64,000 bases of DNA from an uncultured Acidobacteriota bacterium (lineage in GTDB: Bacteria > Acidobacteriota > Thermoanaerobaculia > Multivoradales > SZUA-115). Where the stretch lies: positions 768,001-832,000 of the forward strand of contig CAWDVR010000001.1 of the NCBI GenBank assembly GCA_963805975.1, in the 5' to 3' direction. Shown in pieces: positions 1,385 to 44,364 of this stretch; within the stretch, counting starts at the first letter, position 1; every line of letters starts with the position of its first letter. The notes below the pieces were generated by a model. The model saw only the letters and a program-made list of their open reading frames with translations. It did no database searches and was not told the origin of the DNA. Position numbers and translations under genes: made by a program.

Positions 1385-2663
1385 TCAGGTTCCGTCCACC
1401 ACGAGGCTCCAGGCGGAGAGGTCGCCGGTCTCGAAGCTGTCCTCGAAGATCGATGAGGGCGTGGCGTAGGCCACGAAGGCGCCGGTGCCCCACTCGATCT
1501 GGTTGTCGGCAGGCGGGGTGAGGGTGGCGGCGAAGGAGACGTCGCCCGCTTCGTTGATCGCCACTCCGCCGCCGAAGACCGGGCTCGAATCGTTCTGGTC
1601 GACGCGCGCCGTGCCGAGGTCGGTGGGCAGGAGGTCGTGCTCGCGGACCACGCGCGCGGAGCATGGTGCCGTCGCCCACGAAGACGGCGCGCAGGCCACT
1701 CTCGTCGAAAGCGCGGAAGGCGACCAGACCGGTCTCGTTGACGGCGGGCGCGAAGAACTCGAGCTCCGAGAGGTCGGGCCCGGACTCGACCGCGATGGTG
1801 ACGGTGGTCACTCCGTCGGACAGGAACACGCCACGCCCGCCGGCGACCAGGGTGGCGAGGAAGACCACGCGGCCGTCGTTGGTGAGCGCCACGCTGTTGT
1901 CGAAACGCGCGTAGGGCGAGGCGGCGTTGGAATCGACGTCCTCGGCGATCAGCACCGAGCTGCCGTTGGGTTCGAAGATGCGGATCTGGTCCGGCCGGCT
2001 CTCTGCGATCTCCCCCGCGGCGCCGAGCCGCACTTTGCCGGCGATCTGCCGCGCGTCGTTGAAGGCGGGGGTGAAGAGGAAGGAGTAGGGGCTCCCCACC
2101 ACGACGCCGGCTTCGGCGGCGTGGATCGGCACGGTGGAGGTGCCGTCGTAGGAGACCCAGGTCTGGCCCGAGCCCGAGAAACCGGCCCGGTAGCCCACCT
2201 GCCCGAGGTCGTTGATCGAGGGCGACCCCCATGAGGAAGCACCCAGGGGCAGGTTGGTGAGGAAGCCGGCGGTGTCGGTCTTCGAGTCGTAGGTGTAGAG
2301 GCCTTGGGGGCTCGAGAACGCCTCGTCCCACACCGCGACGCCGGCGTTGTTCAGGCCCACGGAGAGCACGAAGGCCTCCTCGTCGCTCTGGTAGACGATC
2401 TCCCCCTGGGCCTGGCCTCCGAACCACACCCCCTGGCCGGTCGAGCTTGGCAGCACCTCCAGGTCGAAGGCCATCTGTCCCAGGTCGTTCAGCCGTGGCG
2501 TGGTGTTCGAGAAGAAGGCGCTCCCCGGCAGGTTGAAGGCGCCGCTGAAGTTGGCTCTCGCCTGGAGCTCGAAGGTTTCGTAGGTCGGGACCTCGGCCGT
2601 GGCGCCAGAGGCTAGCGCCGTGGCGAGGAGAAAGCTGGAGGCAGATCGCAGGGTGGGTTTCAG
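1385..2663 (-). pseudogene. Secreted NxxGxxAF-repeat beta-propeller protein with IFEDSFETGDLSAW tail; frameshift at about 1651-1660
   Basis: Repeats NDLGQMAF, NDLGQVGY, NDGRVVF, NETGLVAF lie in ORF 1341..2474; NEAGDVSF and the tail lie in ORF 1385..1699. The frame extends upstream to a CTG at 2663 after GGAG and encodes a signal peptide (LKPTLRSASSFLLATALASGATA). Confidence 0.75.
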
Positions 2664-2759
2664 AAGGGGCTCCTTCCCGAAGACGTCTGGATCCTAGCGC
2701 AGCGCCGGGAGGGTGCCGTGCGCCCGGCCGCGGCACGCCCAACTGCTAAGCTTCGACAG

Positions 2760-5234
2760 ATGTCGTTGCTCCCGAAGCTGCCGGCTGCCGTGCTGGGCGC
2801 CGGCCTCGCCGCCTCGATCCTCGCGCCCGTGCTCTCGTCCGCGCAGCCTCTGGCGCTGCGCCTGCCGGTGCTCTCGCTCCGCGAGGCGGCGATCACGGTC
2901 GCCCCGACCCTTGCCGCGAGGCCCGATGCGAACGCCGAGGACGTCGCCGAGCCGCTACCCCCGAGCTCCGAGGTGCTACCGCGGGCGCTCGCCCTGGAAG
3001 AGGAGGCGGAGCGGACCCGTGCCGAGCTCGCGCAGTCGTTCGGCCAGGCTGCCGGGGACCCGGAGCTGGCGGAGCTCCAGGAAGGCTTCGCGCGCCTGCG
3101 GCGGCGGCTCGCCGCGGTGGTGGGCGAAGGACCGATCGACGGCGACCGCGTGGCGCGGCTCCGGGCGCGGGCCCGGAAGGCGGGCGCCCATCTCGAGCAG
3201 GAGCTGGAGGCCACCTACGGCCGCTACCGCCGGCTGGAGCAGCTCGCCTCCGACTGGGACGGCCACCGCGACTTCTTCGCCCGCTGGCAGGCGGCGCTGC
3301 TCGCCGACCCCAGCTACGGCTCGCTGCGCGACGAGCTCACCGAGACCCGCCAGCGCATCGAGGTCGTGCGCGCCGAGATCGCCGCCGCGGTGCCGGCGGC
3401 CCGCGAGGCGCAGCAGCGGGCGCAGGGCCTGGTGCGGGAGCAGCGCGAGATCGAGGTCGAGGTCGAGCGCACCCTGGACGAGTGGGAGGCGAGCCTGCGG
3501 CGCCCGAGCGGCCCGGCCATGGTCACGCCGGCCTTCCTGGCCGAGCTCGAGCAGACTCAGGTCCTCGAACAGATTGGGGTCAGCGTGCCTCGCGATACCA
3601 GGCTCACGCCCCCCGGGCTGGATGCCGATTTTCTGCGAGACCACGCGTTCACCCTCCTGCTCCAGATCGCGGTGGGCCTGCTGGTCGCTTTCGGAGCGCG
3701 CTGGCTGCACCACGCGGCAGGCCCGGAAGACCCCTGGCACGGCCTCCTCGCACGCCCCTGGGCTCTGGGCCTGTTCGCTGCCGTGGCCGGCTTCGGCTCG
3801 CTCTACGACCCGGCGCCGGGCGTGTGGCGACTGCTGCCGGCGGTGCTGCTCGCGGTCTCGCTGGCCCGCTTGGCCGGCGCCACCTTCACCCGGCCGCGCG
3901 CCCGCTGGGCGGTCTACCTGCTCGCCCTGCTGCACGTCGCCTTCGAGGGCGCGGAGACCCTGGGCCTGGCCGAGCCGGTGGCGCGGCTGGTGCTGCTCTC
4001 CCTGGCCCTCGTGCCCCTCGCCCTGCTGCTACCGAGCGTGCTCCGCGAGCATCGCGAGCACGACCGCCTGACGCTCTTCGGCGTGGCGCTGCGGCTGGGA
4101 GTGGCGCTCCTGGCGGTGCTCGCTCTGGCCGAGGTGGCCGGTTTTCATCCGCTGGCGCGCTGGTTCTACCAGGCCGGCCTGCGCAGCACGATCGTGATCT
4201 TCGTCACCTCCTTCATCCTGCTGCTGGCGGCCAAGCTCAGCCGCCTCCTGCTGGCCTCGCCGGCCGTTGCCCGCCGTCGCCTCCTGTCCCAGCGGCGCGA
4301 GGAGCTGGCACGGCGCTTCCGGCGCGCGCTCACGGTGGTGGTGGTCGCGGTCGCGGCGCTGTTCATGGCCGATATCTGGCACCTGGCGGACTCGCCGTAC
4401 TCGGCGTGGCTGTCGCTCCTACGCTGGAACGCGTCCTTCGGCAGCTACCGGGTGACCGCCGGGCAGGCGCTCTTCGCCGCCGGGGCGCTCTACCTGGCCC
4501 TGGTGGTCTCCTGGCTGCTGCGCGCCGCGCTCGACGAACGGGTGGCGCACGGCGGCGGCCTGGACCGCGGCGCCGGCGACTCGGTGAAGACCCTGATCCG
4601 CTACTCGTTCATCGTCGTCGGGTTCTTTCTCGCCCTCTCGCTCCTGGGGATCGACCTCTCGAACTTCGCGATCCTGGCCGGCGCCTTCGGCGTGGGCATC
4701 GGTTTCGGGCTGCAGAACGTGGTCAACAACTTCGTCAGCGGCCTGATCCTGCTCTTCGAGCGACCGGTGCGCGCCGGTGACTCGGTGGTGGTGGCGGGCG
4801 ACAGCGGGGTCATCCGGCGGATCGGCCTGCGCTCGACGGTGATGCAGACCGGCGACCGCGCGGAGATCATCGTGCCGAACAGCCAGTTGATCGCCGAGAA
4901 AGTGACCAACTGGACGCTGTCCTCGCGCTCCGCCCGCTTGGCGGTGCCGGTGCGCGTTGCCTACGGCAGCGACCTGCGCAAAGTGCAGGAGATCCTGGAA
5001 ACGCTCGCCCGGGAGCACCCCAAGGTCTTGCCGGAGCCCAAGCCCCAGGGCCAGATCGTGGCGCTGGGGGAGAGCGCCATCGCTTTCGAGCTGCGCGCCA
5101 CCGTGGCCGACGTCGAGCAGCGGGGGGACGTGCAGCACGACCTCATGGCCGCCGTGGCCGAGCGTTTCGACGCCGAGGGCATCGCCATCCCGTTCCCGCA
5201 ACGGGAGGTGCATATACAGAAGGAGGATGGATGA
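2760..5234 (+). CDS. Mechanosensitive ion channel, MscS family (MscK-like, long N-terminal periplasmic coiled coil)
   Basis: GVGIGFGLQNVVNNFVSGLILLFERPVRAGD, IIVPNSQL, VRVAYGSD, GIAIPFPQREVH; many transmembrane segments. Confidence 0.93.
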   Translation: MSLLPKLPAAVLGAGLAASILAPVLSSAQPLALRLPVLSLREAAITVAPTLAARPDANAEDVAEPLPPSSEVLPRALALEEEAERTRAELAQSFGQAAGDPELAELQEGFARLRRRLAAVVGEGPIDGDRVARLRARARKAGAHLEQELEATYGRYRRLEQLASDWDGHRDFFARWQAALLADPSYGSLRDELTETRQRIEVVRAEIAAAVPAAREAQQRAQGLVREQREIEVEVERTLDEWEASLRRPSGPAMVTPAFLAELEQTQVLEQIGVSVPRDTRLTPPGLDADFLRDHAFTLLLQIAVGLLVAFGARWLHHAAGPEDPWHGLLARPWALGLFAAVAGFGSLYDPAPGVWRLLPAVLLAVSLARLAGATFTRPRARWAVYLLALLHVAFEGAETLGLAEPVARLVLLSLALVPLALLLPSVLREHREHDRLTLFGVALRLGVALLAVLALAEVAGFHPLARWFYQAGLRSTIVIFVTSFILLLAAKLSRLLLASPAVARRRLLSQRREELARRFRRALTVVVVAVAALFMADIWHLADSPYSAWLSLLRWNASFGSYRVTAGQALFAAGALYLALVVSWLLRAALDERVAHGGGLDRGAGDSVKTLIRYSFIVVGFFLALSLLGIDLSNFAILAGAFGVGIGFGLQNVVNNFVSGLILLFERPVRAGDSVVVAGDSGVIRRIGLRSTVMQTGDRAEIIVPNSQLIAEKVTNWTLSSRSARLAVPVRVAYGSDLRKVQEILETLAREHPKVLPEPKPQGQIVALGESAIAFELRATVADVEQRGDVQHDLMAAVAERFDAEGIAIPFPQREVHIQKEDG

Positions 5235-7804
5235 TTCGGAAGGTGATCGTCTGCAACGTGGTGCTCGGTTTCGCCCTGGCCGGCTCGCTGCCGGCCGACG
5301 AGCCGGCGAAAGACGCCAGCGCTCTGCCCACCGTGGCGGCGAAGACCTCCGGGCTGACGGCCAGGCCCGGCCTCTTGACGCTCTACGCCGACGAGGCACG
5401 GGGCAAGCTGTGGCTCGAGGTGCCGCCGGCCGGCAAGAACGGCGTGGTGGCCGAGCTGCTGTACGTCGAGGGCATCACCACCGGCGTGGGCTCGAACCCG
5501 ATCGGGCTCGATCGCGGCCAGCTCGGCGACGGCCGGGTGGTGACCCTGCGGCGGGTGGGCGGCCGGCTGCTGATCGAGGAGCCCAATCTCTTCTTTCGGG
5601 CGTTGTCGAGCGATCCGCGCGAGGTGGAGAGCGTGCGTCAGTCGTTCGCCACCTCGGTGCTGTGGGGCGCCGAGCTCGCGGCCCTCGACGCGGACGGCCG
5701 CGCACTGGTGGACTTCACACCCTTCCTGCTGCGCGACGCGCACGGCGTGGCCGCGACGCTCAAGCGCGCGGGCCAGGGCGCCTACGCGCTCGACGCCGGC
5801 AGGAGCGCCGTGGACCTCGCCTCCTGCCTGGTGTTCCCCGAGAACCTCGAGCTCGAATCGCTGCTGACCTTCAGTGCCGCCGAGCCCGGGCGGCTGGTCT
5901 CCGACGTGCTTGCGACCCCCGAGCTGATCACCGTCACCCTCCACCAGTCCTTCCTCCGCCTGCCCGAGCCGGGCTACCAGCCGCGGCGCTTCGACCCCCG
6001 CGCCGGCTCCTTCTCGATCAGCTTCCAGGATTACGCGGCGCCGCTCGGCGCGCCCATCGAGACGCGCTGGATCGTCCGCCACCGCCTGGAGAAGGTGGAC
6101 CCCAGGGCGGCGCGCTCGCGGGCCAAGAAGCCGATCGTCTACTACGTGGACCCCGGCGCGCCCGAGCCGGTGAAGAGCGCGCTGATCGAGGGCGCCTCGT
6201 GGTGGGCGCGGGCGTTCGAGGCAGCGGGCTTCATCGACGGCTTCCGCGTCGAGGTGCTGCCGGAAGGGGCCCATCCGCTCGACGCGCGCTACAACGTGAT
6301 CCAGTGGGTGCACCGCTCGACGCGCGGCTGGTCCTACGGCGGCGGCCTCATCGACCCGCGCACCGGCGAGATGCTCAAGGGTCACGTCACCCTGGGGTCG
6401 CTCCGCGTGCGGCAGGACCGGCTGCTGTTCGAGGGCCTGCTCGGCACCGAGCACACCGGGAGCGGCGCCGACGACGACCCGACCCGGCTCGCGCTGTGGC
6501 GGATCCGGCAGCTCGCGGCGCACGAAGTGGGCCACGCGCTGGGCTTCTCGCACAATTTCGCGGCCTCGACCTACGGCGGCCGTGCCTCGGTGATGGACTA
6601 CCCGGCGCCGCTGGTGGGCATCACCCCCGCCGGCGAGCTCGACCTGTCCCGGGCCTACGGCGTGGGGGTCGGCGCCTGGGACGTGCACGCGGCGCGCTTC
6701 GCCTACTCCCAGTTCCCGCCCGGCGCGGACGAGGCCGGCGAGCTCGAGCGCCTGTCGGCGGAAGCGGTGGAGAAGGGCCTGCTGTTCCTCTCCGACGCCG
6801 ACGCCAGGCCCCTGGGCTCGGCCCATCCCCTGGCGCATCTATGGGACAACGGCAGCGACCCGGTGGCGGCGCTCGAGCACACGATGCGCGTGCGGGCGGT
6901 GGCGCTCTCCCGCTTCGGCAAGCGCAACCTCGCGGCCGGCCGGCCGCTCGCCCTGCTCGAGGAGGTGCTGGCGACCGTCTACCTCCATCACCGCTACCAG
7001 GTGGAGGCGACCTCCAAGCTGGTGGGTGGCGAGGACTACCGCTACGGCGTCAACGGCGATGCGCAGCCGGCGGCGCGGCCGGTCGACGGGGACACCCAGC
7101 GGCGGGCCCTCGCCGCCGTGCTCTCGACTCTCGCCCCGGCGGCGCTCGACCTGCCGGAGGAGGTGCTGGGGCTGCTCTTGCCGCGGCCCGCGGACTACGA
7201 GCCCTCGATCGAGCAGTTCGCCTCGGCCACCTGGCCGGCGTTCGACGCTCTGGGCGCGGCGGCCACCGCCGCGGACCTCGCGGTGGCGCCGCTCGTCGAG
7301 CCACGGCGGGCGGCGCGGCTGGTGGACCAGCACCGCCGCGAGGCCTCGCTGCCGGGTCTGGAGGAAGTGGTCGCGGCCCTGGTCGAGCGCGTCTTCGAGC
7401 GTACCCCCGCGCCGCCGCGGCTGACCGAGATCCAGCGCACCGTGCAGGCGGTGGTGGCTTCACGGCTGATCGGCCTCGCCGGCGACCGCTCGACCACTCC
7501 CGCGGTGCGCGCGCGGGTGGGTGCCGCCCTCGCCGATCTGCAACAGCGACTGCGTCTGCCGGTCGATTTGCTCGTGCTGGATGACGAGGGCGAGAGCGCG
7601 TTTCGCGCGTACCTGGCCGCCGAGATCAGCCGCTTCCTGGAGCGGCCGGCTGCACCGGTGGAACGAGTGCTGCCCGCGCCGCCCGATCCGCCGCCCGGCA
7701 GCCCGATCGGAGCGGCCACGGCGGGCGGCGGCCCGGGGTACGAGGCATGGCGCCTCGCGGACGACGACGGTTGCTCGCTCGGACGGATGGGGGATGGCCG
7801 CTAG
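5231..7804 (+). CDS. Secreted zinc-dependent metalloprotease (metzincin, DUF5117/DUF4953 type)
   Basis: Signal peptide; KKPIVYYVDPGAPEP; HEVGHALGFSHNF zinc motif; Met-turn SVMDYP; ATGA overlap with the upstream gene. Confidence 0.9.
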   Translation: MIRKVIVCNVVLGFALAGSLPADEPAKDASALPTVAAKTSGLTARPGLLTLYADEARGKLWLEVPPAGKNGVVAELLYVEGITTGVGSNPIGLDRGQLGDGRVVTLRRVGGRLLIEEPNLFFRALSSDPREVESVRQSFATSVLWGAELAALDADGRALVDFTPFLLRDAHGVAATLKRAGQGAYALDAGRSAVDLASCLVFPENLELESLLTFSAAEPGRLVSDVLATPELITVTLHQSFLRLPEPGYQPRRFDPRAGSFSISFQDYAAPLGAPIETRWIVRHRLEKVDPRAARSRAKKPIVYYVDPGAPEPVKSALIEGASWWARAFEAAGFIDGFRVEVLPEGAHPLDARYNVIQWVHRSTRGWSYGGGLIDPRTGEMLKGHVTLGSLRVRQDRLLFEGLLGTEHTGSGADDDPTRLALWRIRQLAAHEVGHALGFSHNFAASTYGGRASVMDYPAPLVGITPAGELDLSRAYGVGVGAWDVHAARFAYSQFPPGADEAGELERLSAEAVEKGLLFLSDADARPLGSAHPLAHLWDNGSDPVAALEHTMRVRAVALSRFGKRNLAAGRPLALLEEVLATVYLHHRYQVEATSKLVGGEDYRYGVNGDAQPAARPVDGDTQRRALAAVLSTLAPAALDLPEEVLGLLLPRPADYEPSIEQFASATWPAFDALGAAATAADLAVAPLVEPRRAARLVDQHRREASLPGLEEVVAALVERVFERTPAPPRLTEIQRTVQAVVASRLIGLAGDRSTTPAVRARVGAALADLQQRLRLPVDLLVLDDEGESAFRAYLAAEISRFLERPAAPVERVLPAPPDPPPGSPIGAATAGGGPGYEAWRLADDDGCSLGRMGDGR

Positions 7805-8696
7805 GAAGGCCCGACCCGTTGCGCCGGTGGCGCGCGCGCGGCCGGCGCGACGCTGGCTGCCGTTCGCCCTGGGCGGTGCGCTGGCGGCGGCCGGGCTGGC
7901 GCTGGCCGCCGGTCTCGGGCTCGGAGGCAGCCGTGCCGGCGAGACTCAGGCGGCTCCCCCGGCGCCCCCTCCGAGCTTGCCGAGGGCGGCTCGGCTGCGG
8001 GTGGAGGTAGTGGCCACCTACCCCCACGACCCGCAGGCTTTTACCCAGGGCCTGATCGAGAAGGGCGGCATCCTCCTGGAGAGCACGGGTCTCTATGGCG
8101 GTTCGGGCGTGCGCCGCGTGGAGCTCGAGACCGGCAAGGTCCTCGCGGAGGCGCGCCTGCCGCGCACGCTCTTCGGCGAGGGCTTGGCATGGGTGGACGC
8201 ACCGGGGAAGGCAGGGCGGCTGGTGCAGCTCACCTGGCAGGAGGGCAAGGCCTTGGTGTGGGACGCGGCGAGCTTCCGGCCCGAGGGCGAACATCAGTAC
8301 CAGGGCGAGGGTTGGGGCCTGTGCTTCGACGGCCGCCGCTTCGCGATGAGCGACGGCAGCGATCTCCTCACCTTCCGGGACGCCGACACCTTTGCCACGC
8401 TCTCCCGCGTGCAAGTCACGCGGGACGGCCTGCCCGTGGGCAGCCTGAACGAGCTCGAGTGCGTGGGGGAGGAGATCTACGCCAACCGCTGGCAGTTCGA
8501 GGAGATCGTGCGGGTGGACGCCGCCAGCGGGAGGGTGACGGCGACCATCGACGCCTCGGGCCTGCTCACCCCCGCCGAGAGAGACGGTACGGATGTCCTG
8601 AACGGCATCGCCTACCGTGCGAAGACCGGCACGTTCCTCCTCACCGGCAAGCTCTGGCCGAAGGTGTTCGAGGTCCGGTTCGTCCCGGTGCCGTAG
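7794..8696 (+). CDS. Glutaminyl-peptide cyclotransferase (glutamine cyclotransferase)
   Basis: YPHDPQAFTQGL, ESTGLYG, FGEGL, QLTWQE, EGWGL, LNELE, VLNGIA; N-terminal membrane anchor; ATG at 7794. Confidence 0.93.
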   Translation: MAARKARPVAPVARARPARRWLPFALGGALAAAGLALAAGLGLGGSRAGETQAAPPAPPPSLPRAARLRVEVVATYPHDPQAFTQGLIEKGGILLESTGLYGGSGVRRVELETGKVLAEARLPRTLFGEGLAWVDAPGKAGRLVQLTWQEGKALVWDAASFRPEGEHQYQGEGWGLCFDGRRFAMSDGSDLLTFRDADTFATLSRVQVTRDGLPVGSLNELECVGEEIYANRWQFEEIVRVDAASGRVTATIDASGLLTPAERDGTDVLNGIAYRAKTGTFLLTGKLWPKVFEVRFVPVP

Positions 8697-8701
8697 CGAA
8701 C

Positions 8702-8722
8702 AGGGCGCACCGCGTGCGCCCT
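8702..8722. terminator. Hairpin between convergent genes, probable terminator
   Basis: AGGGCGCAC-cgc-GTGCGCCCT, a perfect 9-bp stem followed by a short pyrimidine run. Confidence 0.6.
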
Positions 8723-8729
8723 TTCCCCT

Positions 8730-9080
8730 TCAGTTCGCCGCCACCGGTGCGGTGGCCTCTTCGAGGATCTCGAGATGGCCCCAGCCTTCGAGCTTCGCGA
8801 GGTCGATCTCCGCCACGCAGCGCACCGGCACTCCGTCGAGCTTCAGGTTGCCGGCCAGCTTCACCTCGCCCTGGCCGTTGTCGAAATCGGCCTTCGAGAG
8901 ATCCGAGTGCTGGTGGTCCAGACGGAAGCCGAGCTCCGTGCCGCCACGGGTCTCGGTGAACTTGACGTGGACGTAGTTGCGGTCGATCGCGGCCTTGAGC
9001 TCCTTCAATGCGTCGTCGCGCACGGCGCCGATCACCACCCGGTGCTCGCCCTTGGCCAGCTTGTACGGCAGTTCGCTCAT
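8730..9080 (-). CDS. Small protein resembling the C-terminal extension domain of long MbtH-like proteins
   Basis: YVHVKFTETRGGTELGFRLD...ADFDNGQGEVKLAGNLKLDGVPVRCVAEIDLAKLEGWGHL; GAGGAG RBS before GTG-ATG at 9083/9080. Confidence 0.65.
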   Translation of the reverse strand: MSELPYKLAKGEHRVVIGAVRDDALKELKAAIDRNYVHVKFTETRGGTELGFRLDHQHSDLSKADFDNGQGEVKLAGNLKLDGVPVRCVAEIDLAKLEGWGHLEILEEATAPVAAN

Positions 9081-9228
9081 CACAATCTCCTCTGTTGGAT
9101 ACACCTCGACGGCGGGGCCTTGCGTGCCCACCCCTAAGAAATGCGCCAAGCGCCCGGTTGGGGACAAGCCGAGCGTCCTGGCTCCCGGCCGCGAGCCGGG
9201 AGAATGGGCTAGCATAGGCCATACAAGA

Positions 9229-9717
9229 ATGCGCCTCGAGAGGAACCTGCCCTTCTGGCTGCTGGTCGCGGGCGCAAGCCTGTGGGTCGGCTCCGTGTTC
9301 CTGGCACCACTCGCCAGGGCCAACGGCTGGGCGGCGGGCTCCTGGGTCTACGCTTTCTTCGACCCCGTCTGCCACCAGCGGCCGGAGCGCTCGTTCGCCC
9401 TCTGGGGTGAGCCGCTCGCCGTCTGCCATCGCTGCCTCGGCCTCTACACGGGCTTCCTGGCCGGGCTCCTCGTGCTGCCCGTCTGGGAGGGCCTGCGGCG
9501 GCGCCTCCTCGATCGCCCGCGCCTGCTTCTCGCTTTCGCCGCGCCCATGCTCGTGGACGTGGCCCTCTTCGCCGTGAACATCCCGGCGAGCCGCTACGCG
9601 ACCGGCTTCGTCGCCGCGTTCCCCCTGGCCGTGCCGGTGTGGGCGGCCGCCAGCGAGCTCTATTCGCGCGCCCTCAGAGCGGGGGCGCGCCCTCGACTTC
9701 AGGGAGAAAGACCATGA
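9229..9717 (+). CDS. DUF2085-type membrane protein
   Basis: VCHQRPERSF and VCHRCLGLYTG motifs; hydrophobic. Confidence 0.8.
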   Translation: MRLERNLPFWLLVAGASLWVGSVFLAPLARANGWAAGSWVYAFFDPVCHQRPERSFALWGEPLAVCHRCLGLYTGFLAGLLVLPVWEGLRRRLLDRPRLLLAFAAPMLVDVALFAVNIPASRYATGFVAAFPLAVPVWAAASELYSRALRAGARPRLQGERP

Positions 9718-10262
9718 ACGGATCGAACTCGAAGCTCAGGCCCGCGCTGATCGGCGGCGCGGCGTTGGGGGCGGCCTCCGCCATCCCGCCGATCAACTTT
9801 CTCAACTGCGCCTGCTGCGCGCTGGTGATCGGCGGCGGCCTGCTGGCGATGTACCTCTACATGAAGGACTCGCCCCCCGCGCCGCAGCCGCCCTACGGCG
9901 ACGGCGCCATCCTGGGCCTGATGGCCGGCGCCATCGGCGCCGTGGTGGCCACCATCGTCACCATCCCGGTGCAGCTGATCATGGCCAGCTTCATGAACCC
10001 TGAGGGCCAGGCGCAGCAGATCCGCGAGGCCTTCGACCAGGCCGACCTGCCGCCCGCTGTCGAGCAGTTCGTGATCAACATGGCGAGCCCGACGCTCAAC
10101 GCCACCAAGCTGCTGATCGGGCTGGCGATGAACCTGGTGATCTTCGGCATCTTCGCCATGATCGGCGGCATCATCGGCGCCGCGGTCTTCCACAAGAAGG
10201 GCCGGCCCATGGCCCCGGCGCCGTACGAGCCGCCTCCGCCGCCGCCGGTCATGAACGTGTAG
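9714..10262 (+). CDS. Hypothetical membrane protein with NCACC motif
   Basis: ATGA overlap with the upstream gene; about four hydrophobic helices; Pro-rich tail. Confidence 0.75.
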   Translation: MNGSNSKLRPALIGGAALGAASAIPPINFLNCACCALVIGGGLLAMYLYMKDSPPAPQPPYGDGAILGLMAGAIGAVVATIVTIPVQLIMASFMNPEGQAQQIREAFDQADLPPAVEQFVINMASPTLNATKLLIGLAMNLVIFGIFAMIGGIIGAAVFHKKGRPMAPAPYEPPPPPPVMNV

Positions 10263-10292
10263 GCTGGGGAGCCACGCGGCGGAGCCGCCCGG

Positions 10293-11936: not shown

Positions 11937-11960
11937 TTGCTTTGAGGAGCCTCATCGACC

Positions 11961-12542: not shown

Positions 12543-12546
12543 GGAC

Positions 12547-13671: not shown

Positions 13672-13676
13672 CCGGC

Positions 13677-13800
13677 GCCCCTCACCCCGTCCCTCTCCCC
13701 GCTAACGCGGGGCGAGGGCGCCACCGCCCGCCCCTGAGAACCACAGGCCACCCTCCGGTCCCCTCTCCCCGCTTGCGGGGAGAGGGCCAGGGTGAGGGGC
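13677..13800. repeat. Inverted pair of REP-like palindromic elements
   Basis: GCCCCTCACCCCGTCCCTCTCCCCGC-taac-GCGGGGCGAGGG (13677-13718) and an inverted copy CCCTCTCCCCGC-tt-GCGGGGAGAGGGCCAGGGTGAGGGGC (13761-13800). Confidence 0.8.
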
Positions 13801-13850
13801 CCTGGATCCACTCTTGACGCCCTCCCCTCCCTCTGCTTTGCTCCGCCCGC

Positions 13851-16639: not shown

Positions 16640-16640
16640 C

Positions 16641-16671: not shown

Positions 16672-16677
16672 GGCGGC

Positions 16678-23071: not shown

Positions 23072-23755
23072 ATGGCATCCCGTCGGTTGCTGGTGATCGG
23101 TGCTTGGTCCCTCAGTGCAGTGATGGTTCTGGGTCTCGTGGCGCTCCCGGTCAGCGCCCAGGAGACGACGGTGAAGAACGACTCGGTGAGCGACTTCGAG
23201 CAGGTCGCCATCCAGGCCGGCTTTGCCGCCAACGAGCGCGCCGCCGTCTGGCTGACCTCGCCCTGCGACGGCAAGCTGGTGGCCGTGCAGATCCTCTGGC
23301 GCTCCCTTTTCGGCGGCACCGGCGACACCCTCGGCGAGTCGATCCTCATCCAGGAGGCGGGCACGTTCCCGACTCCCGGTACGACGCTCTCCACCCTTTC
23401 CGGGCCGCTCCTCACGGACGGATTCCTGAACGAGTACCGCTTCCTGGACCAGGGCGGCACCGTGCCGCTCTCCGTGCCGCTGGCCCTGGACCAGGTCTTC
23501 GTGGTCTCGTTCCGCTTCCTCACAGCGACGCCCGGCCTCGGCCCCAGCCTGGTCACCGACGTCGACGGCTGCCAGGCGGGCAAGAACGCCATCTTCGCCA
23601 TCCCGCCTTCGACCTGGTTCTCGGCCTGCTCACTCGGCGTGTCCGGGGACTTCGTGATGCGGGCCGTGGTGGACTGCAGCGTGGTGGAGGAGGAGATCTT
23701 CTCCGACGACTTCGAGACCGGCGACACGTCGCTCTGGACGGTCACCGTTCCTTAG
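23072..23755 (+). CDS. Secreted hypothetical protein with IFSDDFETGDTSLW tail
   Basis: GGAGG RBS; signal peptide ending VSA-Q; four Cys; conserved C-terminal tail. Confidence 0.8.
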   Translation: MASRRLLVIGAWSLSAVMVLGLVALPVSAQETTVKNDSVSDFEQVAIQAGFAANERAAVWLTSPCDGKLVAVQILWRSLFGGTGDTLGESILIQEAGTFPTPGTTLSTLSGPLLTDGFLNEYRFLDQGGTVPLSVPLALDQVFVVSFRFLTATPGLGPSLVTDVDGCQAGKNAIFAIPPSTWFSACSLGVSGDFVMRAVVDCSVVEEEIFSDDFETGDTSLWTVTVP

Positions 23756-31831: not shown

Positions 31832-31844
31832 CGAAACGGGGAAC

Positions 31845-31877
31845 GAAAAAGGGCGAGCCGTCGGCGCGCCCTTTTTC
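31845..31877. terminator. Bidirectional intrinsic terminator
   Basis: GAAAAAGGGCG-a-GCCG-t-CGGC-g-CGCCCTTTTTC between convergent genes. Confidence 0.8.
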
Positions 31878-31899
31878 CTGCTGCGCGCTTCTCGGCCTG

Positions 31900-32538: not shown

Positions 32539-32628
32539 GGTTCCTCCAAGTGGTAAAAAGGGTGCTGCAGCGGCAGATTTTGCCGCTCGGTGCTGATCCA
32601 GGATCGTCACACGGAACGGAGAGCATCC

Positions 32629-34110: not shown

Positions 34111-34150
34111 GAGCACCGAAGCCCGGCGGACCGCCGGGCGGATCTCAGAA

Positions 34151-35452: not shown

Positions 35453-35518
35453 CTCCAGGCGCTGGTGGCGGCCTTCCTGACCGCCAGCGAAACCCTAGCG
35501 CCAGAGCGGGTGGCGCAA

Positions 35519-35535
35519 CGTAACGCCTGCGTAAC
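35519..35535. promoter_or_regulatory. Direct repeat CGTAAC-N5-CGTAAC, candidate OmpR-family box
   Basis: 11-bp period; lies in the divergent intergenic region before the response regulator. Confidence 0.45.
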
Positions 35536-35608
35536 TCCTGCCGGCCGCTGTCGCGGACGGCCCTCCCGAGCGCGAGCGCTGCGCTAGCATCGGCGCGAGG
35601 AATCGACG

Positions 35609-36295
35609 ATGCCGCAGCGGACGATCCTGGTGATCGAGGACGACGTGGCCATCCGCCGCGGCATGGTGGCGGCGCTCCGCCACGCCTCGTTCGCGGTCCG
35701 CGAGGCCGGCGACGGTGCGGCGGGCGGTGAGCTGGCGCTCGGCGGCGAAATCGATCTGGTGCTCCTGGACCTCGTGCTGCCGCTCGTGGACGGGCTCGAG
35801 GTCCTGCGGCGCATCCGGCGCGAGGAGCCGGCTCTGCCGGTGATCCTGGTGACCGCGCGCGGCGCCGAAGACGACCGCGTGCGCGGGCTCGAGCTGGGCG
35901 CGGACGACTACGTGGTGAAGCCCTTCGGCGCCCGCGAGCTCCTGGCGAGAGTGGAAGCCCTGCTGCGGCGCTCACCCGAACGGCCGGCGGTTCTTTCGCG
36001 GCTCGACCTTCCCGGCCGCGAGGTGGACTTCGAGAGTTGCGAGGTGCGCTTCGAGGATGGCCACTGCGAGGCGCTGTCGAAGCTCGAAGGCGGCCTGCTG
36101 CGCTACCTGGCGAAGAGCCGCGAGCGCATCGTCTCCCGTGACGAGCTCCTCACCCGTGTCTGGCAGCAGAGGCCGCACCTGGTGGCGACCCGCTCGGTCG
36201 ACATGACTATGGCCCGCCTGCGCAAGAAGCTGCGCGACGAGAGCGAGGAGGTGCTGATCACGGTGCGCGGGAAGGGCTACAGGCTCCGATCGTGA
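35609..36295 (+). CDS. OmpR family response regulator
   Basis: VIEDD, LLDLVLP, GADDYVVKPF, TVRGKGY. Confidence 0.95.
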   Translation: MPQRTILVIEDDVAIRRGMVAALRHASFAVREAGDGAAGGELALGGEIDLVLLDLVLPLVDGLEVLRRIRREEPALPVILVTARGAEDDRVRGLELGADDYVVKPFGARELLARVEALLRRSPERPAVLSRLDLPGREVDFESCEVRFEDGHCEALSKLEGGLLRYLAKSRERIVSRDELLTRVWQQRPHLVATRSVDMTMARLRKKLRDESEEVLITVRGKGYRLRS

Positions 36296-37878
36296 TCCGC
36301 CGGCCGCTCCTGGTGGCTGCCGCCTTCGTCGCGAGCGCCCTGGTGCTGCTCGGCGCGCTGGCCTGGATCACATCCATGACGCTCGCCCTCGAGCGTTCGG
36401 AGATCGAAGCGCTCGGCAAGGCGATCGCCGAGGAGAACATCCGCATCGCGCTGTGGCGGATGGACGCCTCGCTCGCCGAGCTGTTGGCGCGCGAGAACCG
36501 CCGGAGCGCGGCTCAGCACCGTGCCGCCAGCCAGTCGCCGGCGGAACCAGGGCAGATCGTGCGGGCGCGCTTCGAGGTCGGGCCAAGACCGGCGCCGCCC
36601 AAAGGCCCGAGGTCGGCCGCGCCGCTACCGGACAAATCACTGGCTCTGGACGTGGACCGGCTGAACGCCAGTGCCAACGAAGCGGGCCAGCAGATGGCCT
36701 TCAGTCAGGAGGTGCTCAACTCCCAGGCCTTCCAGCGCCGGCAGGAGCTGGCGCAGCAGAACCTCGTGCTCTCCTCACCACCCCAGGAGGCGGCGCCTGG
36801 GCCGGTCCCGGCTGTGGAGCCGGTCGCCGAGGTGGAGTCTGCCTTCGAAGGACAGTGGGAGGGCGACGAGCTGTTGCTGCTGCGGCGGGTGCTCGAAGGC
36901 GACCAGCGGCTGGTGCAGGGCGTCCGGCTCGACTGGCCCGCGCTGTCGAGCGCGCTCCTGGCGCAGGTGCGCGAGGTAGTGCCGGGGGCACGCCTGGAGC
37001 GCTCGTCCGGCCCTGCCGACCCGAGTCGCCAGCTCGCGGTGCTGGCGCTGCGCCTGGTGCCGGGGCCGCCGCCCGAGCCCGCACCGCCGGACTGGACGCC
37101 GGTGCGGCTGACCCTGGCCGCGGCCTGGGGCGCGGCGCTGCTCTGCCTCGCCGGGGTGGGTGCGCTCCTGGCGGGCTCGGTGTCGCTCTCCCAGCGCCGT
37201 GCGGACTTCGTGTCGGCAGTCACCCACGAGCTGCGCACGCCGCTCACCACGCTGCGCCTCTACTCGGACCTGCTGGTCGAAGGCGCGGTGGCACCCGAGG
37301 AGCACCGCTCGTACCTCGCCACCCTGAAGCGCGAGGCCGACCGGCTCGGCCACCTCGTGGACAACGTACTGTCGTTCTCACGGCTGGAGCGGGTGCGCGC
37401 ATCCGGGGCGCGAGAGCAGGCGGCGGTGGGGGAAATGGTCGCACGGGCGCTGCCACGGCTCGAAGAGCGAGCGGCGCTCGCCGAAACGACGATCGAGGTC
37501 GAGGTTCCCGCCGAGGCGATCGGCGCGCTCGTCCGCACCGATTCCGCGGCGGTCGAGCAGATCCTCTTCAACTTGGTGGACAACGCTTGCAAGTATGGTG
37601 GCGATGCCGAATCGCCGGCGATCCGCCTGGCCATTGAGCTGCGCGGCAGCTACGCCGTGCTGAGCGTCTCGGACCACGGGCAGGGACTCGGCCCCCGCGA
37701 GCGCCGGCGCCTGTTCCGCCCCTTCCACCGCTCGGCGGCGCAGGCCGCCGGTTCGGCGCCCGGCGTGGGCCTCGGCTTGGCGCTCTCCCGCCGGCTCGCC
37801 CGCCGCATGGGCGGCGATCTTCAGCTGGCGAAGTCAGAGCAGGGAGCGTGCTTCGAGCTGCTGCTGCGGCGGGCGTAG
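36292..37878 (+). CDS. Sensor histidine kinase
   Basis: Two TM segments; VTHELRTPLT H-box; NLVDNACKY; DHGQG; GVGLGLA. Confidence 0.95.
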   Translation: MIRRPLLVAAAFVASALVLLGALAWITSMTLALERSEIEALGKAIAEENIRIALWRMDASLAELLARENRRSAAQHRAASQSPAEPGQIVRARFEVGPRPAPPKGPRSAAPLPDKSLALDVDRLNASANEAGQQMAFSQEVLNSQAFQRRQELAQQNLVLSSPPQEAAPGPVPAVEPVAEVESAFEGQWEGDELLLLRRVLEGDQRLVQGVRLDWPALSSALLAQVREVVPGARLERSSGPADPSRQLAVLALRLVPGPPPEPAPPDWTPVRLTLAAAWGAALLCLAGVGALLAGSVSLSQRRADFVSAVTHELRTPLTTLRLYSDLLVEGAVAPEEHRSYLATLKREADRLGHLVDNVLSFSRLERVRASGAREQAAVGEMVARALPRLEERAALAETTIEVEVPAEAIGALVRTDSAAVEQILFNLVDNACKYGGDAESPAIRLAIELRGSYAVLSVSDHGQGLGPRERRRLFRPFHRSAAQAAGSAPGVGLGLALSRRLARRMGGDLQLAKSEQGACFELLLRRA

Positions 37879-37882
37879 CAGC

Positions 37883-38377
37883 TTACTCCTGCGCGATCTG
37901 GATGAAGTTGCCGCAGGTGTCCTCGAACATCGCGATCTTCACCGGCCCGGCCTGGGTTGGCGGCATGCGGAACACGACGCCCAGCTTCTGCAACCGCTCG
38001 AACTCCTTCTGCACGTCGTCGACGCCGAACATCGTCCACGGGATGCCCTGGTCGAACATCGCCTTCTGAAAGGTCTTGGCCGCCGGGTTGCCATTGGGCT
38101 CGAGCAGCAGCTCGGTGCCGTCGGGATCGGCGGGCGACACCACGGTCAGCCAGCGCGCTCCGCCGGCCGGGACGTCCGTCTTCTTCACGAAGCCCAGCAC
38201 CTCGGTGTAGAACTGCAGGGCCTTCTCCTGGTCGTCGACCAGCACGCTGGTCACGATGATCCTCATCGAGCCTTTCTCCTTTCCCGGGGCGGGCGTCCCC
38301 AGGCTGTCCTGGGTTCCGAAGGTCGCGGTTGCGAACAATAGGGTGATCAAGCTTGCAAGCATCGTGGATCTGTTCAC
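37883..38377 (-). CDS. VOC/glyoxalase family protein, possibly with an N-terminal signal peptide
   Basis: VDDQEKALQFYTEVLGF, RWLTVVSP, FEDTCGNFIQI. Two RBS-preceded starts: GTG 38377 and ATG 38266. Confidence 0.88.
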   Translation of the reverse strand: MNRSTMLASLITLLFATATFGTQDSLGTPAPGKEKGSMRIIVTSVLVDDQEKALQFYTEVLGFVKKTDVPAGGARWLTVVSPADPDGTELLLEPNGNPAAKTFQKAMFDQGIPWTMFGVDDVQKEFERLQKLGVVFRMPPTQAGPVKIAMFEDTCGNFIQIAQE

Positions 38378-38399
38378 GGGCTCTCCTCGTTGGCCGGTT

Positions 38400-38620
38400 A
38401 GCTCTCGGCGCGACGGCTTGTCGAAGATCTTCTTCAGGGTCTCGGCCTGCTGGGGTGGGCGCGATCTGAAGTAGACACTTGGGGGCCACCGCAATGGGCA
38501 GAGGCTCGACACCAGGGTGATCAGCAGGCCGGCCAGGAAGCCCCGGCCGAAGCTCAGCCGGCCCGTCTGCTCGCGGTAGGAGGCCGAAGACCAGGATGCC
38601 GCCCAAGAGCCGGCGCCGCG
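38400..38620 (-). pseudogene. Degraded DUF4199-like membrane protein remnant
   Basis: SYREQTGRLSFGRGFLAGLLITLVSSLC...VYF...QQAETLKKIFDKP, with no intact start or end. Confidence 0.45.
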
Positions 38621-38722
38621 ACGCCGGAACGGTGTGGGTCGAGGTGGCCACGGCAGGTCGATGATACCGGCTCGCCTGCCCGGGAGCGTGCCGGAGATCG
38701 GCTATGCTCGGGGCGAGGGATC

Positions 38723-39289
38723 TTGCCCAACGAGACCATCACGGAGCTACTGGAGCGAAGCGGCGGGAGCGGCCCGGAAGTGGTCAACGAGCTGGTGCCG
38801 CTGGTCTACGAAGAGCTGCGCTCGATCGCCCATCGCTTCCTCGCCGCCGAGCGCCGGCCAAGGCAGACCCTCGACACCACGGCGCTGGTTCACGAGGCCT
38901 ATCTCAAGCTGATCGGCAGCCGCGGGCTCGCGGCTCACGGCCGGGCGTACTTCTTCGGCGCCGTGGCCCGGGCCATGCGGCAGGTGCTGGTGGAGGCCGC
39001 GCGGCGCCGCGGGCGGCTGCGGCGCGGCGGTGGCGAGGCGCCCTTGCCGCTCACCGGCATCGAGGCGGTGGCGGACGATCGCGGTGCCGAGGTGCTCGCC
39101 ATCGACGAGGCCCTGACCGAGCTCGCGACGATCTTTCCACGCCAGGCACAGGTGATCGAGTGCCGGTTCTTCGGCGGCCTGTCGGTGGAGGAGACCGCGG
39201 AAGCCCTCGAGATCTCGCCCCGCACGGTCAAGCGCGACGGGTCGCTGGCGCAAGCCTGGCTCTTTCGCGCTCTCCGAGGCGGCGCCTGA
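38723..39289 (+). CDS. ECF sigma factor of the kinase-associated (TIGR02999-like) type
   Basis: LVPLVYEELRSIAH, TLDTTALVHEAYLKL, MRQVLV, RFFGGLSVEETAEAL, TVKRD. Confidence 0.92.
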   Translation: MPNETITELLERSGGSGPEVVNELVPLVYEELRSIAHRFLAAERRPRQTLDTTALVHEAYLKLIGSRGLAAHGRAYFFGAVARAMRQVLVEAARRRGRLRRGGGEAPLPLTGIEAVADDRGAEVLAIDEALTELATIFPRQAQVIECRFFGGLSVEETAEALEISPRTVKRDGSLAQAWLFRALRGGA

Positions 39290-39293
39290 CGCG

Positions 39294-41708
<2,415 letters not shown>

Positions 41709-41748
41709 TCGGCGGAGCGCGGCCCACGCCGGAGAGCCCGGTCCCGGC

Positions 41749-43020
41749 TCAAGGGAAAGTCTCGGTCCAGGCCGAGGTGTCGCCGCTCTCGAAGCCGTCG
41801 GCGAAGATCCGGTTGCCGAAGAACAGCACCGCGCCGGGGGTGCCGGGGTGCTCGGTGGTGTAGGGCGCCCCGGCGAGCACGCCGGCGGCTCCGAGAGCGA
41901 CGGTGGTGCCCAACTGGTCGTAGTCGAGCGGCTCGCTCCGCTTCAACCTGTGCACCAGATGCCAGCTCGAGGCGTGGGGATTGCCGGTGCGCAGGTAGCG
42001 GTACACCGCGCCGGCATTGACCCCGCCGTCATCCTCGCCGATCGCACCCGCCACCAGCTCCACGGACCCGGTCGGGCTCGCCGCCAGGTCGACGCTCCAG
42101 CCGAACCAGTCGTGGTCCGTCGCCTCGGCCGGCCGCAGCAGCGCCTGCAGCTCGAACTCTAGAAACGGGAGGGTCACGACCTCGTAGACGTAGCCGCCGC
42201 CCGCATCGGTGAGCGCTCCCGGCGCAGTGGTTCGGTCCAGGTACGGCGAACCGACGGCCAGGAGGTCGCCGTCGAGCGCCACCGCCCAGCCGAAGTCGGC
42301 GCCGGTCTGACTGGAGGCCGGAGAGACGATCTCCTGCAGCTCGATCCAGCTCCCCGCCCGGGCATAGACGTGGACGGCACCGTTGTCGCCCCGCCCCGGT
42401 GCCCCGGCGACGATCACCGGGCCGTCGATCGCCAGGCCCCGGCCCAACTGGTCGGCGAAGCCGCCCACGAAGGTCTTTGCCAGCATCCACGAGCCGGGGC
42501 TCTGCTGCTCGTAGATCCGCACCCGGCCGCTGCCGCCGAAGAAGTCCGGCTGCCCGATCGCCAGCGTCGTGCCGTCCATGACCAGCGCCCACACCCAGCC
42601 GCCGTCGATCCCCGATACCTCTACCTGGCCGCTGTCGGCGTGCCGGAGCGAGGTGGTGGCTCCTCCGGAGTCGAGCATCGCGTAGAGGAGATAGAAGCCG
42701 GCCGTCACCGGCAGGTATTGCGGAGCTGTCGGCAGGATGGGTGGATGAGAGACCCAGGAGGTGGCCCCCGGCCCGAGCGAGAAGCGCTGCGCGGCCCCCG
42801 CCTGCGGCGCGCCGACGATGGCGATCGAGCTGGCGTCTGGCGTGTCCGCGAGGGCGAGCGTGGCTCCGAAAGCGGGACCCGGCGGCAGCTCGGTGAGATA
42901 GTCCCAGAGCAGTGTCTGGTCCTCCGTGCGAGTGGGTACGGTGCCGGCGTGAGCCTCCGGCATCGTCGACACGACAAGAGCGAGCGAGAAGGTCAAAGCC
43001 TGGAAGCTAGGGTTGCGCAT
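41749..43020 (-). CDS. Secreted FG-GAP repeat protein with IFADGFESGDTSAW tail (paralog 2)
   Basis: FGWAVALDGDLLAVGSP, VAGAPG, GAVY repeats; signal peptide. Confidence 0.87.
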   Translation of the reverse strand: MRNPSFQALTFSLALVVSTMPEAHAGTVPTRTEDQTLLWDYLTELPPGPAFGATLALADTPDASSIAIVGAPQAGAAQRFSLGPGATSWVSHPPILPTAPQYLPVTAGFYLLYAMLDSGGATTSLRHADSGQVEVSGIDGGWVWALVMDGTTLAIGQPDFFGGSGRVRIYEQQSPGSWMLAKTFVGGFADQLGRGLAIDGPVIVAGAPGRGDNGAVHVYARAGSWIELQEIVSPASSQTGADFGWAVALDGDLLAVGSPYLDRTTAPGALTDAGGGYVYEVVTLPFLEFELQALLRPAEATDHDWFGWSVDLAASPTGSVELVAGAIGEDDGGVNAGAVYRYLRTGNPHASSWHLVHRLKRSEPLDYDQLGTTVALGAAGVLAGAPYTTEHPGTPGAVLFFGNRIFADGFESGDTSAWTETFP

Positions 43021-43098
43021 GGCGTGGGGTTCCTCCTCTCCTCCCTGCGCCGGGAAGAGGTCGAAAGGGCCACGCCTGCTTTCGCCCGCCCTACGCCA

Positions 43099-44364
43099 CT
43101 AGGGCTCGACAGCGCTCCAGGCCGAAGTGTCCCCGCTCTCGAAGCCGTCGGCGAAGATCCGCGAGCCGAAGAACAGCACGACCCCGGAGCTGTTCTCACT
43201 GTTGACCACGCCATTGGGGGCGCCGGCCAGAACGCCGCGCTCGGTGATCGCGACGGTCGCCCCCAGGCGCTCGAACGGATGGGGATCGCTGCTGATCATC
43301 CGGGTCACCTCCACCCAGCTCGACGATTCACCCTCGCCCGTTCGAGCGTACTGATGGATCGCGCCCGCGTTGGTGGCTCCTTCCCCGTCCTCTCCAGGAG
43401 CCCCGGCCACCAGCCGGGCACTACCGGCCGCGGGCCCAAAGAGATCCACGCTGGTTCCAAAGAAGTCATGATTCGTGGCTCCCGCAGGACGCAGCAGGGC
43501 CTGCAGCTCGAACAGCAGAAACGGGAACGTCACCACCTCGTAGACGTAGACGCCGCCCACGTCGATCAGCGTTCCCGGCGCGGTGGTGCGGTCCAGCCAC
43601 GGCGAGCCCACGGCCAGGATGTCGCCGGCGAGCGCCCCGCCGAACTCGGCCTCGACCTGGCTCGCGGCGGGGGAGTCGATCACCTGGAGCTCGATCCAGC
43701 TCGTGGCCCGCGCATAGACATGGACGGCGCCGTTGTCCCCCCGGCCCGGCGCGCCGGCGACCACGGTCTGACCGTCGATTGCGAGCGCCGCGCCGAGCCG
43801 ATCGCCGAACCCGCCGCCGAAAGTCTTCGCCAGCACCCAGTTCCCGGTGCCGTGATCTTCGTAGATCCGCACTCGGCCGCTGCCACCGAAGAAGGCCGGC
43901 TGACCGATCGCCAGGATGGTGCCGCGCTTGACCAGGGAGAGCACCGGGCCGCCGTCGATCGTCGGGATCACCACCGAGCCCTCGGTGCGCCGGATGGTCG
44001 AGGTCGTCCCTCCCGGGTCGAGGGCGGCGTAGATCGCGAAGCCCTCGACCGACACCGGCACGAGCTGAGAGGTCGTCGGGTCGATCGAAGTATGTCCGTG
44101 CCAGAAAGTCTCGTCGGGCCTGAGCTCGAACAGCCGCGCCGCGCCGGCCGTCGAGCCGACGATCCCGAAGGTATAGCCCGCCTCAGTCTCGGCCATGTCG
44201 AGCGTGGCGCCGAAACCGGCGTTGGATGGCAGAAGGGGATCGAGGTCCCAGAACAGGGTCTCGTCCTGAGTAAGGGTCCCGGCGGCCCCGGCACCGAAGG
44301 CAAGTGCCCACAGGCTGGTGGTGATCGATGTGAGAGCGAAAATCCGCAGGCGGTGGTTGCGCAT
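43099..44364 (-). CDS. Secreted FG-GAP repeat protein with IFADGFESGDTSAW tail (paralog 1)
   Basis: FGTSVDL, VAGAPG, LGATVAI repeats; collinear with 41749..43020. Confidence 0.87.
   Translation of the reverse strand: MRNHRLRIFALTSITTSLWALAFGAGAAGTLTQDETLFWDLDPLLPSNAGFGATLDMAETEAGYTFGIVGSTAGAARLFELRPDETFWHGHTSIDPTTSQLVPVSVEGFAIYAALDPGGTTSTIRRTEGSVVIPTIDGGPVLSLVKRGTILAIGQPAFFGGSGRVRIYEDHGTGNWVLAKTFGGGFGDRLGAALAIDGQTVVAGAPGRGDNGAVHVYARATSWIELQVIDSPAASQVEAEFGGALAGDILAVGSPWLDRTTAPGTLIDVGGVYVYEVVTFPFLLFELQALLRPAGATNHDFFGTSVDLFGPAAGSARLVAGAPGEDGEGATNAGAIHQYARTGEGESSSWVEVTRMISSDPHPFERLGATVAITERGVLAGAPNGVVNSENSSGVVLFFGSRIFADGFESGDTSAWSAVEP

Follow-up and report, generated by a model that had tools for sequence, protein, structure and literature searches.

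In the cohesin-dockerin pairs of cellulosomes, a C-terminal calcium-related module carried by unrelated enzymes docks non-covalently onto an envelope-anchored receptor; SLH-bearing proteins are among those that provide the anchoring. The C-terminal domain (CTD) of type IX secretion (T9SS; TIGR04183), which works with shuttle proteins, is a soluble C-terminal address on diverse cargo that is read by a dedicated protein. In donor-strand complementation (chaperone-usher and type V pili), as in SpyTag/SpyCatcher, a beta-sandwich that is incomplete by itself is filled up in trans by a short strand. Tripartite C-terminal sorting signals are defined with a transmembrane helix and a basic cluster (10.1101/2023.06.07.544157). 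Cip1 (PDB 3zyp), the PL20 glucuronan lyase (2zzj) and the X122 jelly rolls are intact single chains, and Cip1 and X122 are reported to have shown neither lyase activity nor glycan binding (PMC3764139, PMC10916295). Here we describe a stretch of 64,000 nucleotides (the window) from an uncultured Acidobacteriota bacterium (assembly GCA_963805975.1, contig CAWDVR010000001.1, positions 768,001 to 832,000), in which four secreted proteins end in the same short tail. Judged by alignment, this tail corresponds to the front of a Cip1/PL20-like jelly roll, split off as a separate piece that comprises strand 1, the calcium loop, the Trp and strand 2. A protein encoded elsewhere in the genome, called the partner below, has the jelly-roll body minus that piece and is very probably the reader of the tail.

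An earlier note on this DNA had reported the four tails and proposed them as a protein-sorting signal. The peptides are real: they translate exactly, on strands −, +, − and −, and a six-frame search of the window for the motif returns these four and nothing else. Tail 1 (1385..1450, −) has 21 residues before the stop and scores 35.3 bits with the tail hidden Markov model (HMM). Tails 2 (23696..23755, +), 3 (41749..41808, −) and 4 (43099..43158, −) have 19 residues each and score 36.9, 41.9 and 41.7 bits, respectively. The carriers also belong to the families that had been named. Carrier 1 (1385..2663, −) is a secreted, MXAN_5453-like propeller with NxxGxxAF repeats (NF045523, TIGR05002) whose relatives are MYXO-CTERM-anchored. 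Carrier 2 (23072..23755, +) is a secreted protein of 227 residues that matches no known family in Pfam and NCBIfam scans. Carrier 3 (41749..43020, −; 423 residues; PF14312, E 4.7e-23) and its tandem paralogue carrier 4 (43099..44364, −; 421 residues; PF14312, E 9.3e-16) are secreted FG-GAP propellers. Carrier 1 contains a frameshift near 1655, as NF045523 positions 4-340 and 340-407 fall in two frames; tail 1 is therefore in frame with only the last ~100 codons. The frameshift is possibly an assembly error, and the probable start of the gene is a CTG near 2663.

The tail is spread over the whole host genome (G000; 5.36 Mb, 70% GC, 6 contigs). A regular expression finds 44 matches, 44/44 of them at most 25 residues from a stop, and none in the reversed genome, which excludes chance. 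The tail HMM finds 46 matches of at least 15 bits, each 0-5 residues from the stop, the next match having 9.8 bits. The HMM count and position check that the earlier note had proposed thus gave a strictly terminal element on unrelated proteins. The consensus is [ILV]-F-x-D-G-F-E-[ST]-G-[DN]-T-S-A-W-[ST]-L-[VT]-V-P, with both F, the E and the W invariant in 33/33 aligned tails. The tail is acidic or polar and stops about 5 residues past the Trp, usually with L-T/V-V-P. Of the 42 carriers that lie outside the window, 40 were scanned with Pfam to identify the cargo; the other two are short fragments and were omitted. A match was obtained for 27/40, representing at least 20 (about 20) unrelated lead families: S8, M14 and trypsin peptidases, endonuclease I, SNase, GSDH, galactose-oxidase-like proteins, di-haem peroxidase, ThuA, CAP, FG-GAP, PKD, DUF11 and others. 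Several carriers match NCBIfam families in which the anchor changes (e.g. choice-of-anchor B) and some partly match myxosortase- or rhombosortase-dependent M36 models. The carrier genes are scattered, and no shared machinery is found among the listed neighbours of the 46 carriers in G000. That the carriers have signal peptides, as had been stated, holds for the greater part: a permissive heuristic passes 36/46 genome-wide and fails 10/46, several of these being frameshift fragments; one pass is a fragment as well, and some failures show clear signal peptides by eye. The short or signal-less carriers (window 1385-2663; L013:4001-4525, L015:4001-4096, L029:16713-16877, L031:4001-5914) suggest frameshifts from assembly errors.

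No Pfam or NCBIfam model covers the tail; a check for such a model in NCBIfam had been suggested earlier. Its profile gives two chance-level matches (E 0.1) among PDB sequences, and the Atlas search returns for it two tiny clusters without a name, below 0.8. A 30-column profile matches 7,557 protein clusters at 50% identity, a count that takes in intact domains. Many public proteins (P0024-P0155) carry two or three tandem C-terminal tails, which would be multivalent tags. Four tails (L006:6611-6700, L009:4004-4093, L031:5825-5914, L033:5837-5926) have an extended ending with two cysteines followed by Pro-Pro, probably closed by a disulfide. Five G000 proteins (C1:462464-466612, C1:555290-556768, C1:1178279-1179190, C1:1426879-1432224, C6:280669-284526) have IPTL-CTERM-like ends, so that a membrane-type sorting signal coexists with the tail. 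L025:4004-4969, without Pfam or NCBIfam match, may share with G000:C1:955866-957410 a second recurrent ~100-residue secreted-protein domain of Thermoanaerobaculia, which might be another sorting or binding module.

Is the tail a strand of each carrier's own fold, or the vestige of an eroded domain? PF20773 (InhA-like MAM) does extend into the tail in 2/40 carriers, and intact head-plus-body domains are found in some relatives. Against this speak the many unrelated lead families with linkers of variable length before the tail, one MAM carrier that already possesses a head strand of its own, the existence of tandem tails and the invariance of F, F, E and W. Moreover, carrier 2 has homologues with other ends. 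Among 120 of its 205 homologues that were listed, 73 have the long tail, 29 a short tail that ends at or just past F-E, 1 an intermediate form and 17 something else, about eight of the latter being tail variants by eye; one homologue bears a GC-type dockerin above cut-off. We regard an origin in the carriers' own folds, or in an eroded domain, as hardly credible. The earlier note had listed a structural strand as grounds for refutation; the tail is indeed a structural strand, but of the partner's fold and not of the carriers' folds.

On relatives, the place of the tail is taken by other anchors, namely MYXO-CTERM, choice-of-anchor families and the GC-type dockerin. Being terminal, multi-copy, found on signal-peptide proteins and exchanged with such signals on homologues, the tail could be recognised by a processing enzyme, sortase-like or T9SS-like, that would cut it off and link the cargo covalently. 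The tail has 19 residues as compared to about 70 in the CTD, and the partner that is distributed with it is a jelly roll and not a membrane protein. There is no transmembrane helix, as the earlier note had observed for the four tails, and no basic cluster: none of the tails is hydrophobic or trailed by basic residues. TIGR04183 and PF18962 have no C-terminal match in 5 window and 40 genome proteins, with one internal partial match in L011. On these features of tail and partner, a covalent processing signal is very improbable. The sorting-tag interpretation given earlier survives in that the element is terminal, independent of family, borne by exported cargo and matched by a dedicated partner; its analogy to PEP-CTERM, GlyGly-CTERM and T9SS finds no support.

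The tail motif also makes up the N-terminal strands and the calcium loop of a jelly-roll domain of ~200 residues with the PL20/Cip1 fold. A headless copy of this domain was predicted, and an HMM was then built from 18 intact domains with the head trimmed off. In G000 it matches one gene with E 2.8e-15, the next match having E 12; short motifs for the intact domain, unlike this data-built HMM, gave no match in G000. The gene lies outside the window on the + strand of contig C6 (G000:C6:244914-245555 = L161:9914-10555), flanked by promoter-like and terminator-like sites. It encodes 213 residues: a signal peptide followed directly by the jelly-roll body minus the piece equivalent to the tail. It has no Pfam or NCBIfam family. 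An AF2 model of the partner alone is all-beta (pLDDT 94.6) with 2zzj as the top fold match, and the comparison of folds shows a resemblance to polysaccharide lyases; identity to the Cip1, PL20 and X122 jelly rolls is only about 15%. Partner orthologues align to the intact domain from position 25 on, and the tail covers positions 1-24. Partner residues E41, G167 and D183 are invariant in 36/36 sequences, and the D-x-F-E of the tail (E in 33/33) and partner D183 are in register with the Ca2+ site of Cip1. An Atlas search with the partner served as a lead and returned Acidobacteriota and Pseudomonadota clusters without a name (0.96-0.97).

Some observations touch on partner variants and expression. 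A partner variant with a 3-coathanger-stack-like insert in the first loop occurs in L218, L272, L274, L276, L277 and L278, often in multiple copies per genome; NF045639 is just below cut-off in L218. The idea that the partner is an S-layer protein was dropped, as codon bias gives no sign of high expression. Ranks 1 and 2 of the crude codon-bias score, above EF-Tu, belong to two near-identical secreted proteins of 440 residues (G000:C1:950947-952269 and C5:536639-537961), which are candidates for the S-layer or a major surface protein.

The distribution of the partner follows that of the tail. In 20 relatives the tail pattern is present in 16, and a single partner query matches 14/16 of these and 0/4 of those without tail. 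In a class sample of 221 genomes at least 90% complete (kin are not independent, and six sampled genomes helped to build the profile), 39 genomes have the tail pattern and 39 a partner-profile match, three of the latter being intact domains only. After inspection, 32 genomes have both, 7 the tail only, 4 the partner only and 178 neither. Among the 11 discordant genomes, the tail matches of G126 are heads of intact domains, G042 and G181 have single matches, terminal tails appear in G139 and G206 with a relaxed pattern, and G049 has one terminal tail on the same contig as its partner. Within family f8, 2/30 genomes have both and 28/30 neither. An order sample of 151 genomes gives 91 with both, 54 with neither and 3 + 3 discordant. 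It is important to note that 40/40 held-out genomes with at least 10 pattern matches have a partner match; 26 of these were inspected, and 25/26 show a signal peptide plus headless domain, one being intact. In the phylum sample of 201 genomes, three matches fall outside the class and one falls in family f14, none of them of the signal-peptide-plus-headless type; G467, outside the class, has an unsplit stand-alone version of the domain. In three genomes labelled Bacteroidota, Deltaproteobacteria and Verrucomicrobiae (G230-G232; 1-6 tail matches) no partner was found. The six matches of G230, the genome labelled Bacteroidota, lie on one contig (L107, C7, 70850-161473) and are given little weight for that reason; they may reflect mis-binning or transfer. 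The profiling that the earlier note had recommended has thus pointed to a co-distributed, dedicated factor, which is a soluble jelly-roll protein instead of the translocase or processing enzyme that was sought.

The jelly roll appears to be cut at a second point in Xanthomonadales. A distant match, P0305, led to 16 metagenome loci with a second partner type. After the signal peptide, these partners start with C-x3-4-W, a segment equivalent by alignment to the Trp half of the head, and they lack only the I-F-x-D-x-F-E strand. They carry a dockerin-like C-terminal domain (PF00404 on 8/11, 2 above cut-off). Two kinds of gene follow downstream: a small cohesin-like one, present in most loci, and one for a larger protein whose N-terminal domain is cohesin-like. 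PF00963 matches 2/13 of the downstream proteins (1 above cut-off), and a local profile links the small and large forms in 10/10. At its C-terminus the larger protein has an IPTL-CTERM-type tail (TIGR04174 matches 2/6, 1 above cut-off). The dockerin and cohesin profiles from these loci have no match in G000. Cluster names for this partner type are Lysobacteraceae, Chiayiivirga and Xanthomonadaceae, and for cargo with the short tail Marinicella, Wenzhouxiangellaceae, Dokdonella and Xanthomonadales; we take GTDB to put both sets of taxa in one order. By alignment, tail length and partner cut point thus seem to complement each other in two lineages.

This complementarity bears on the possibility that the tail and the headless protein have descended together and act independently, the tail binding calcium or a glycan alone and the headless protein being a stand-alone lectin or lyase. 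It would fit that a good model is obtained for the partner by itself, that the partner resembles polysaccharide lyases and sits among glycan genes, and that none was detected in genome G018. Independent action is nevertheless quite improbable: co-occurrence is near one-to-one, also inside families f4, f8 and f17, each of the two cut points complements the tail length of its lineage, and the conserved buried-type tail residues F2, F6 and W14 need a sheet for packing.

Partners differ in the domains that are fused to them. SLH repeats are above cut-off on three partners and 14 further ones look SLH-fused by eye, mostly in genomes with few tails. One partner has a dockerin above cut-off and one FG-GAP-like repeats; the majority, that of G000 included, are bare. 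Bare partners are located in surface-glycan loci, with genes for glycosyltransferases, sulfotransferases and O-acyltransferases as well as O-antigen-ligase-like and sugar-nucleotide genes. Within about 7 kb of the partner, a gene of sulfatase fold is present in 14/26 loci vs 270/4147 G000 genes; in this comparison the profile was made with 12 of these same neighbours and a single genome serves as baseline, and the locus of G000 itself has none. In 4/26 loci, from three families, genes for an extracytoplasmic function (ECF)-type sigma factor and a one-helix anti-sigma factor lie directly upstream of the partner (L286:5101-6435, L290:812-1974, L291:7204-8589, L297:7483-8651). The anti-sigma factor has a degenerate tail that the tail HMM misses; by eye it is plain in G010 and G083 and weak in G102 and G106. 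No protease emerged as a conserved neighbour in the 26 loci, where no protease family was profiled.

In G049 (L279:735-6298, L308) a Calx-beta/propeller protein whose end is dockerin-like precedes the dockerin-fused partner, and the partner contig also holds a 5017-residue open reading frame with the only tail of that genome, a self-contained island. A 460-residue open reading frame in G018 (C1, locus L235) has a cohesin-like start, a DUF11-like middle, the head motif and a degenerate jelly-roll body. G000 has a dockerin-like GDSL protein (C1:1371302-1372465), and the secretin of its type II secretion system (T2SS)-like cluster (L252:415-2928 = G000:C5:332293-334809) ends in a cohesin, PF00963, with 31.5 bits, above cut-off. 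In the window, an ECF-type sigma factor and Ser/Thr kinase/TPR pair (38780-41708) converges on carriers 3 and 4, and a PIN-like toxin-antitoxin-type pair (44453-45111) lies directly upstream of them, both by eye.

The main rival to a surface tether is a partner that does bind the tail and acts as a periplasmic shuttle or receptor for export, e.g. in type II secretion. The 46 cargoes served by a single gene, the bare partner of G000, the cohesin on its T2SS-like secretin together with dockerins on some partners, and the tail-like ends of single-helix anti-sigma factors, which suggest that periplasmic binding is possible, are all compatible with such a role; SLH in a diderm may also bind within the envelope. 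On the other hand, SLH fusion and the operon of cohesin and IPTL-CTERM anchor suit a static tether, the tail substitutes for dockerin or MYXO-CTERM-type anchors on homologous cargo, and the partner gene is located in surface-glycan loci and not in a secretion cluster. We consider the shuttle unlikely.

Our preferred explanation is that the tail completes the fold of the partner in trans as a calcium-locked tag and so tethers the cargo to the envelope, and we judge it to be probable. A soluble partner that lacks exactly the segment present in the tail suggests docking by strand complementation. Cargo and partner both have signal peptides and would be exported by means of these. The tail would then pair with the last strand of the partner and insert as strands 1-2, and its D-x-F-E, together with Asp183 of the partner, is predicted from Cip1 to close one Ca2+ site. 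The partner could be held at the envelope through the fused SLH repeats seen in some genomes. Alternatively, in the Xanthomonadales-type operon, its dockerin may bind the cohesin of the IPTL-CTERM protein. A bare partner, as in G000, might bind the surface glycan made by the products of neighbouring genes. The ECF sigma factor and the anti-sigma factor with its degenerate tail are likely, if speculatively, a feedback sensor of free partner. Taken together, the data lean, with less assurance than for the tether itself, towards a genome-wide natural split-protein display in which a Ca2+-binding jelly roll is split at two points in two phyla, the catcher is linked to SLH, to dockerin-cohesin-IPTL-CTERM or to a sulfated surface glycan, and in some cells an anti-sigma factor that bears the tag monitors it.

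Several results weigh against this explanation. One partner gene would have to serve 46 cargoes in G000, where the partner has no anchor domain, no SLH is found in the genome and the codon-bias rank of the partner is 1606 of 3805 (by a crude score with a noisy reference set). AF2 folds the lone partner with confidence, from which it may be stable without the tail. In G018 (97% complete, 150 contigs), where the tail has 148 matches, three profiles and a motif search detect no headless partner. The partner was likewise not found in G173, G189 and G199 (27-32 pattern matches; 91-94% complete, 440-490 contigs) or in G170, G269 and G301 (fragmented or 91-94% complete), and a renewed search of five tail-rich genomes with wider profiles and motif gave no headless partner. 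Conversely, G021 has the partner and no terminal tail was found there. In the order sample both probes also match intact domains, so that concordance among genomes with 1-3 matches is partly trivial. Finally, the pairing of short tail and C-x-x-x-x-W partner is seen at the level of the order only.

We found no published description of the tail, the partner or the operon of cohesin, dockerin and IPTL-CTERM in a search whose scope did not extend to subscription journals and supplements. Regarding the question of how diderms without T9SS- or sortase-type tags retain secreted enzymes, a tag and a candidate reader can now be named, and the residue-level predictions are checkable with a peptide and one small soluble protein. 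If the tether is true, each genome has from tens to more than a hundred tagged enzymes and adhesins for a single catcher. Gram-negative bacteria would then possess a surface assembly line that is cellulosome-like but has a new chemistry, and an orthogonal tag/catcher pair would be available ready-made. This would offer a role for the motif of the 7,557 clusters mentioned above, intact domains included, and would provide an annotation for a hypothetical family and for an operon of three genes in Xanthomonadales, an order that includes cultured genera. For protein engineering, the existence of two cut points that complement each other hints at natural tag/catcher pairs that are calcium-switchable and possibly orthogonal.

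As compared to known systems, the tail is not a member of the tripartite signals, the T9SS CTDs or the dockerins. With PEP-CTERM, GlyGly-CTERM and MYXO-CTERM it shares a terminal position, multiple copies, independence of family and occurrence on signal-peptide proteins, and the partner gene, like exosortase, is often in polysaccharide loci; unlike the tripartite signals, the tail has neither transmembrane helix nor terminal basic cluster. Like the T9SS CTD it is a soluble C-terminal address on diverse cargo with a dedicated reader, but it is much shorter and differs in fold and lineage. Cip1, PL20 and X122 have the same beta-jelly-roll fold as tail and partner, whereas in the present case many cargo genes encode one part of the domain and a single partner gene the other. 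In cohesin-dockerin systems, too, a portable C-terminal calcium-related tag is present on many enzymes, and some partners here have dockerins or SLH beside cohesins. The differences are that the present system is found in diderm Acidobacteriota and Xanthomonadales, that the receptor is a single jelly roll instead of a cohesin array, and that the tag is a piece of 9-19 residues from the receptor's own fold instead of a folded dockerin of ~60 residues. PF00404 has no match on the carriers of the window or on the scanned genome carriers, and the tail aligns to jelly-roll strands. As in donor-strand complementation, the acceptor appears from the alignment to lack one segment (positions 1-24) that is borne by another chain. 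Donor-strand complementation and SpyTag rely on Ig-like or CnaB folds and either assemble polymers or are engineered, whereas in the present system the donor is a tag found throughout the genome and the partner itself carries no donor strand. By analogy, the system would work like a dockerin-cohesin tether that uses the chemistry of donor-strand complementation.

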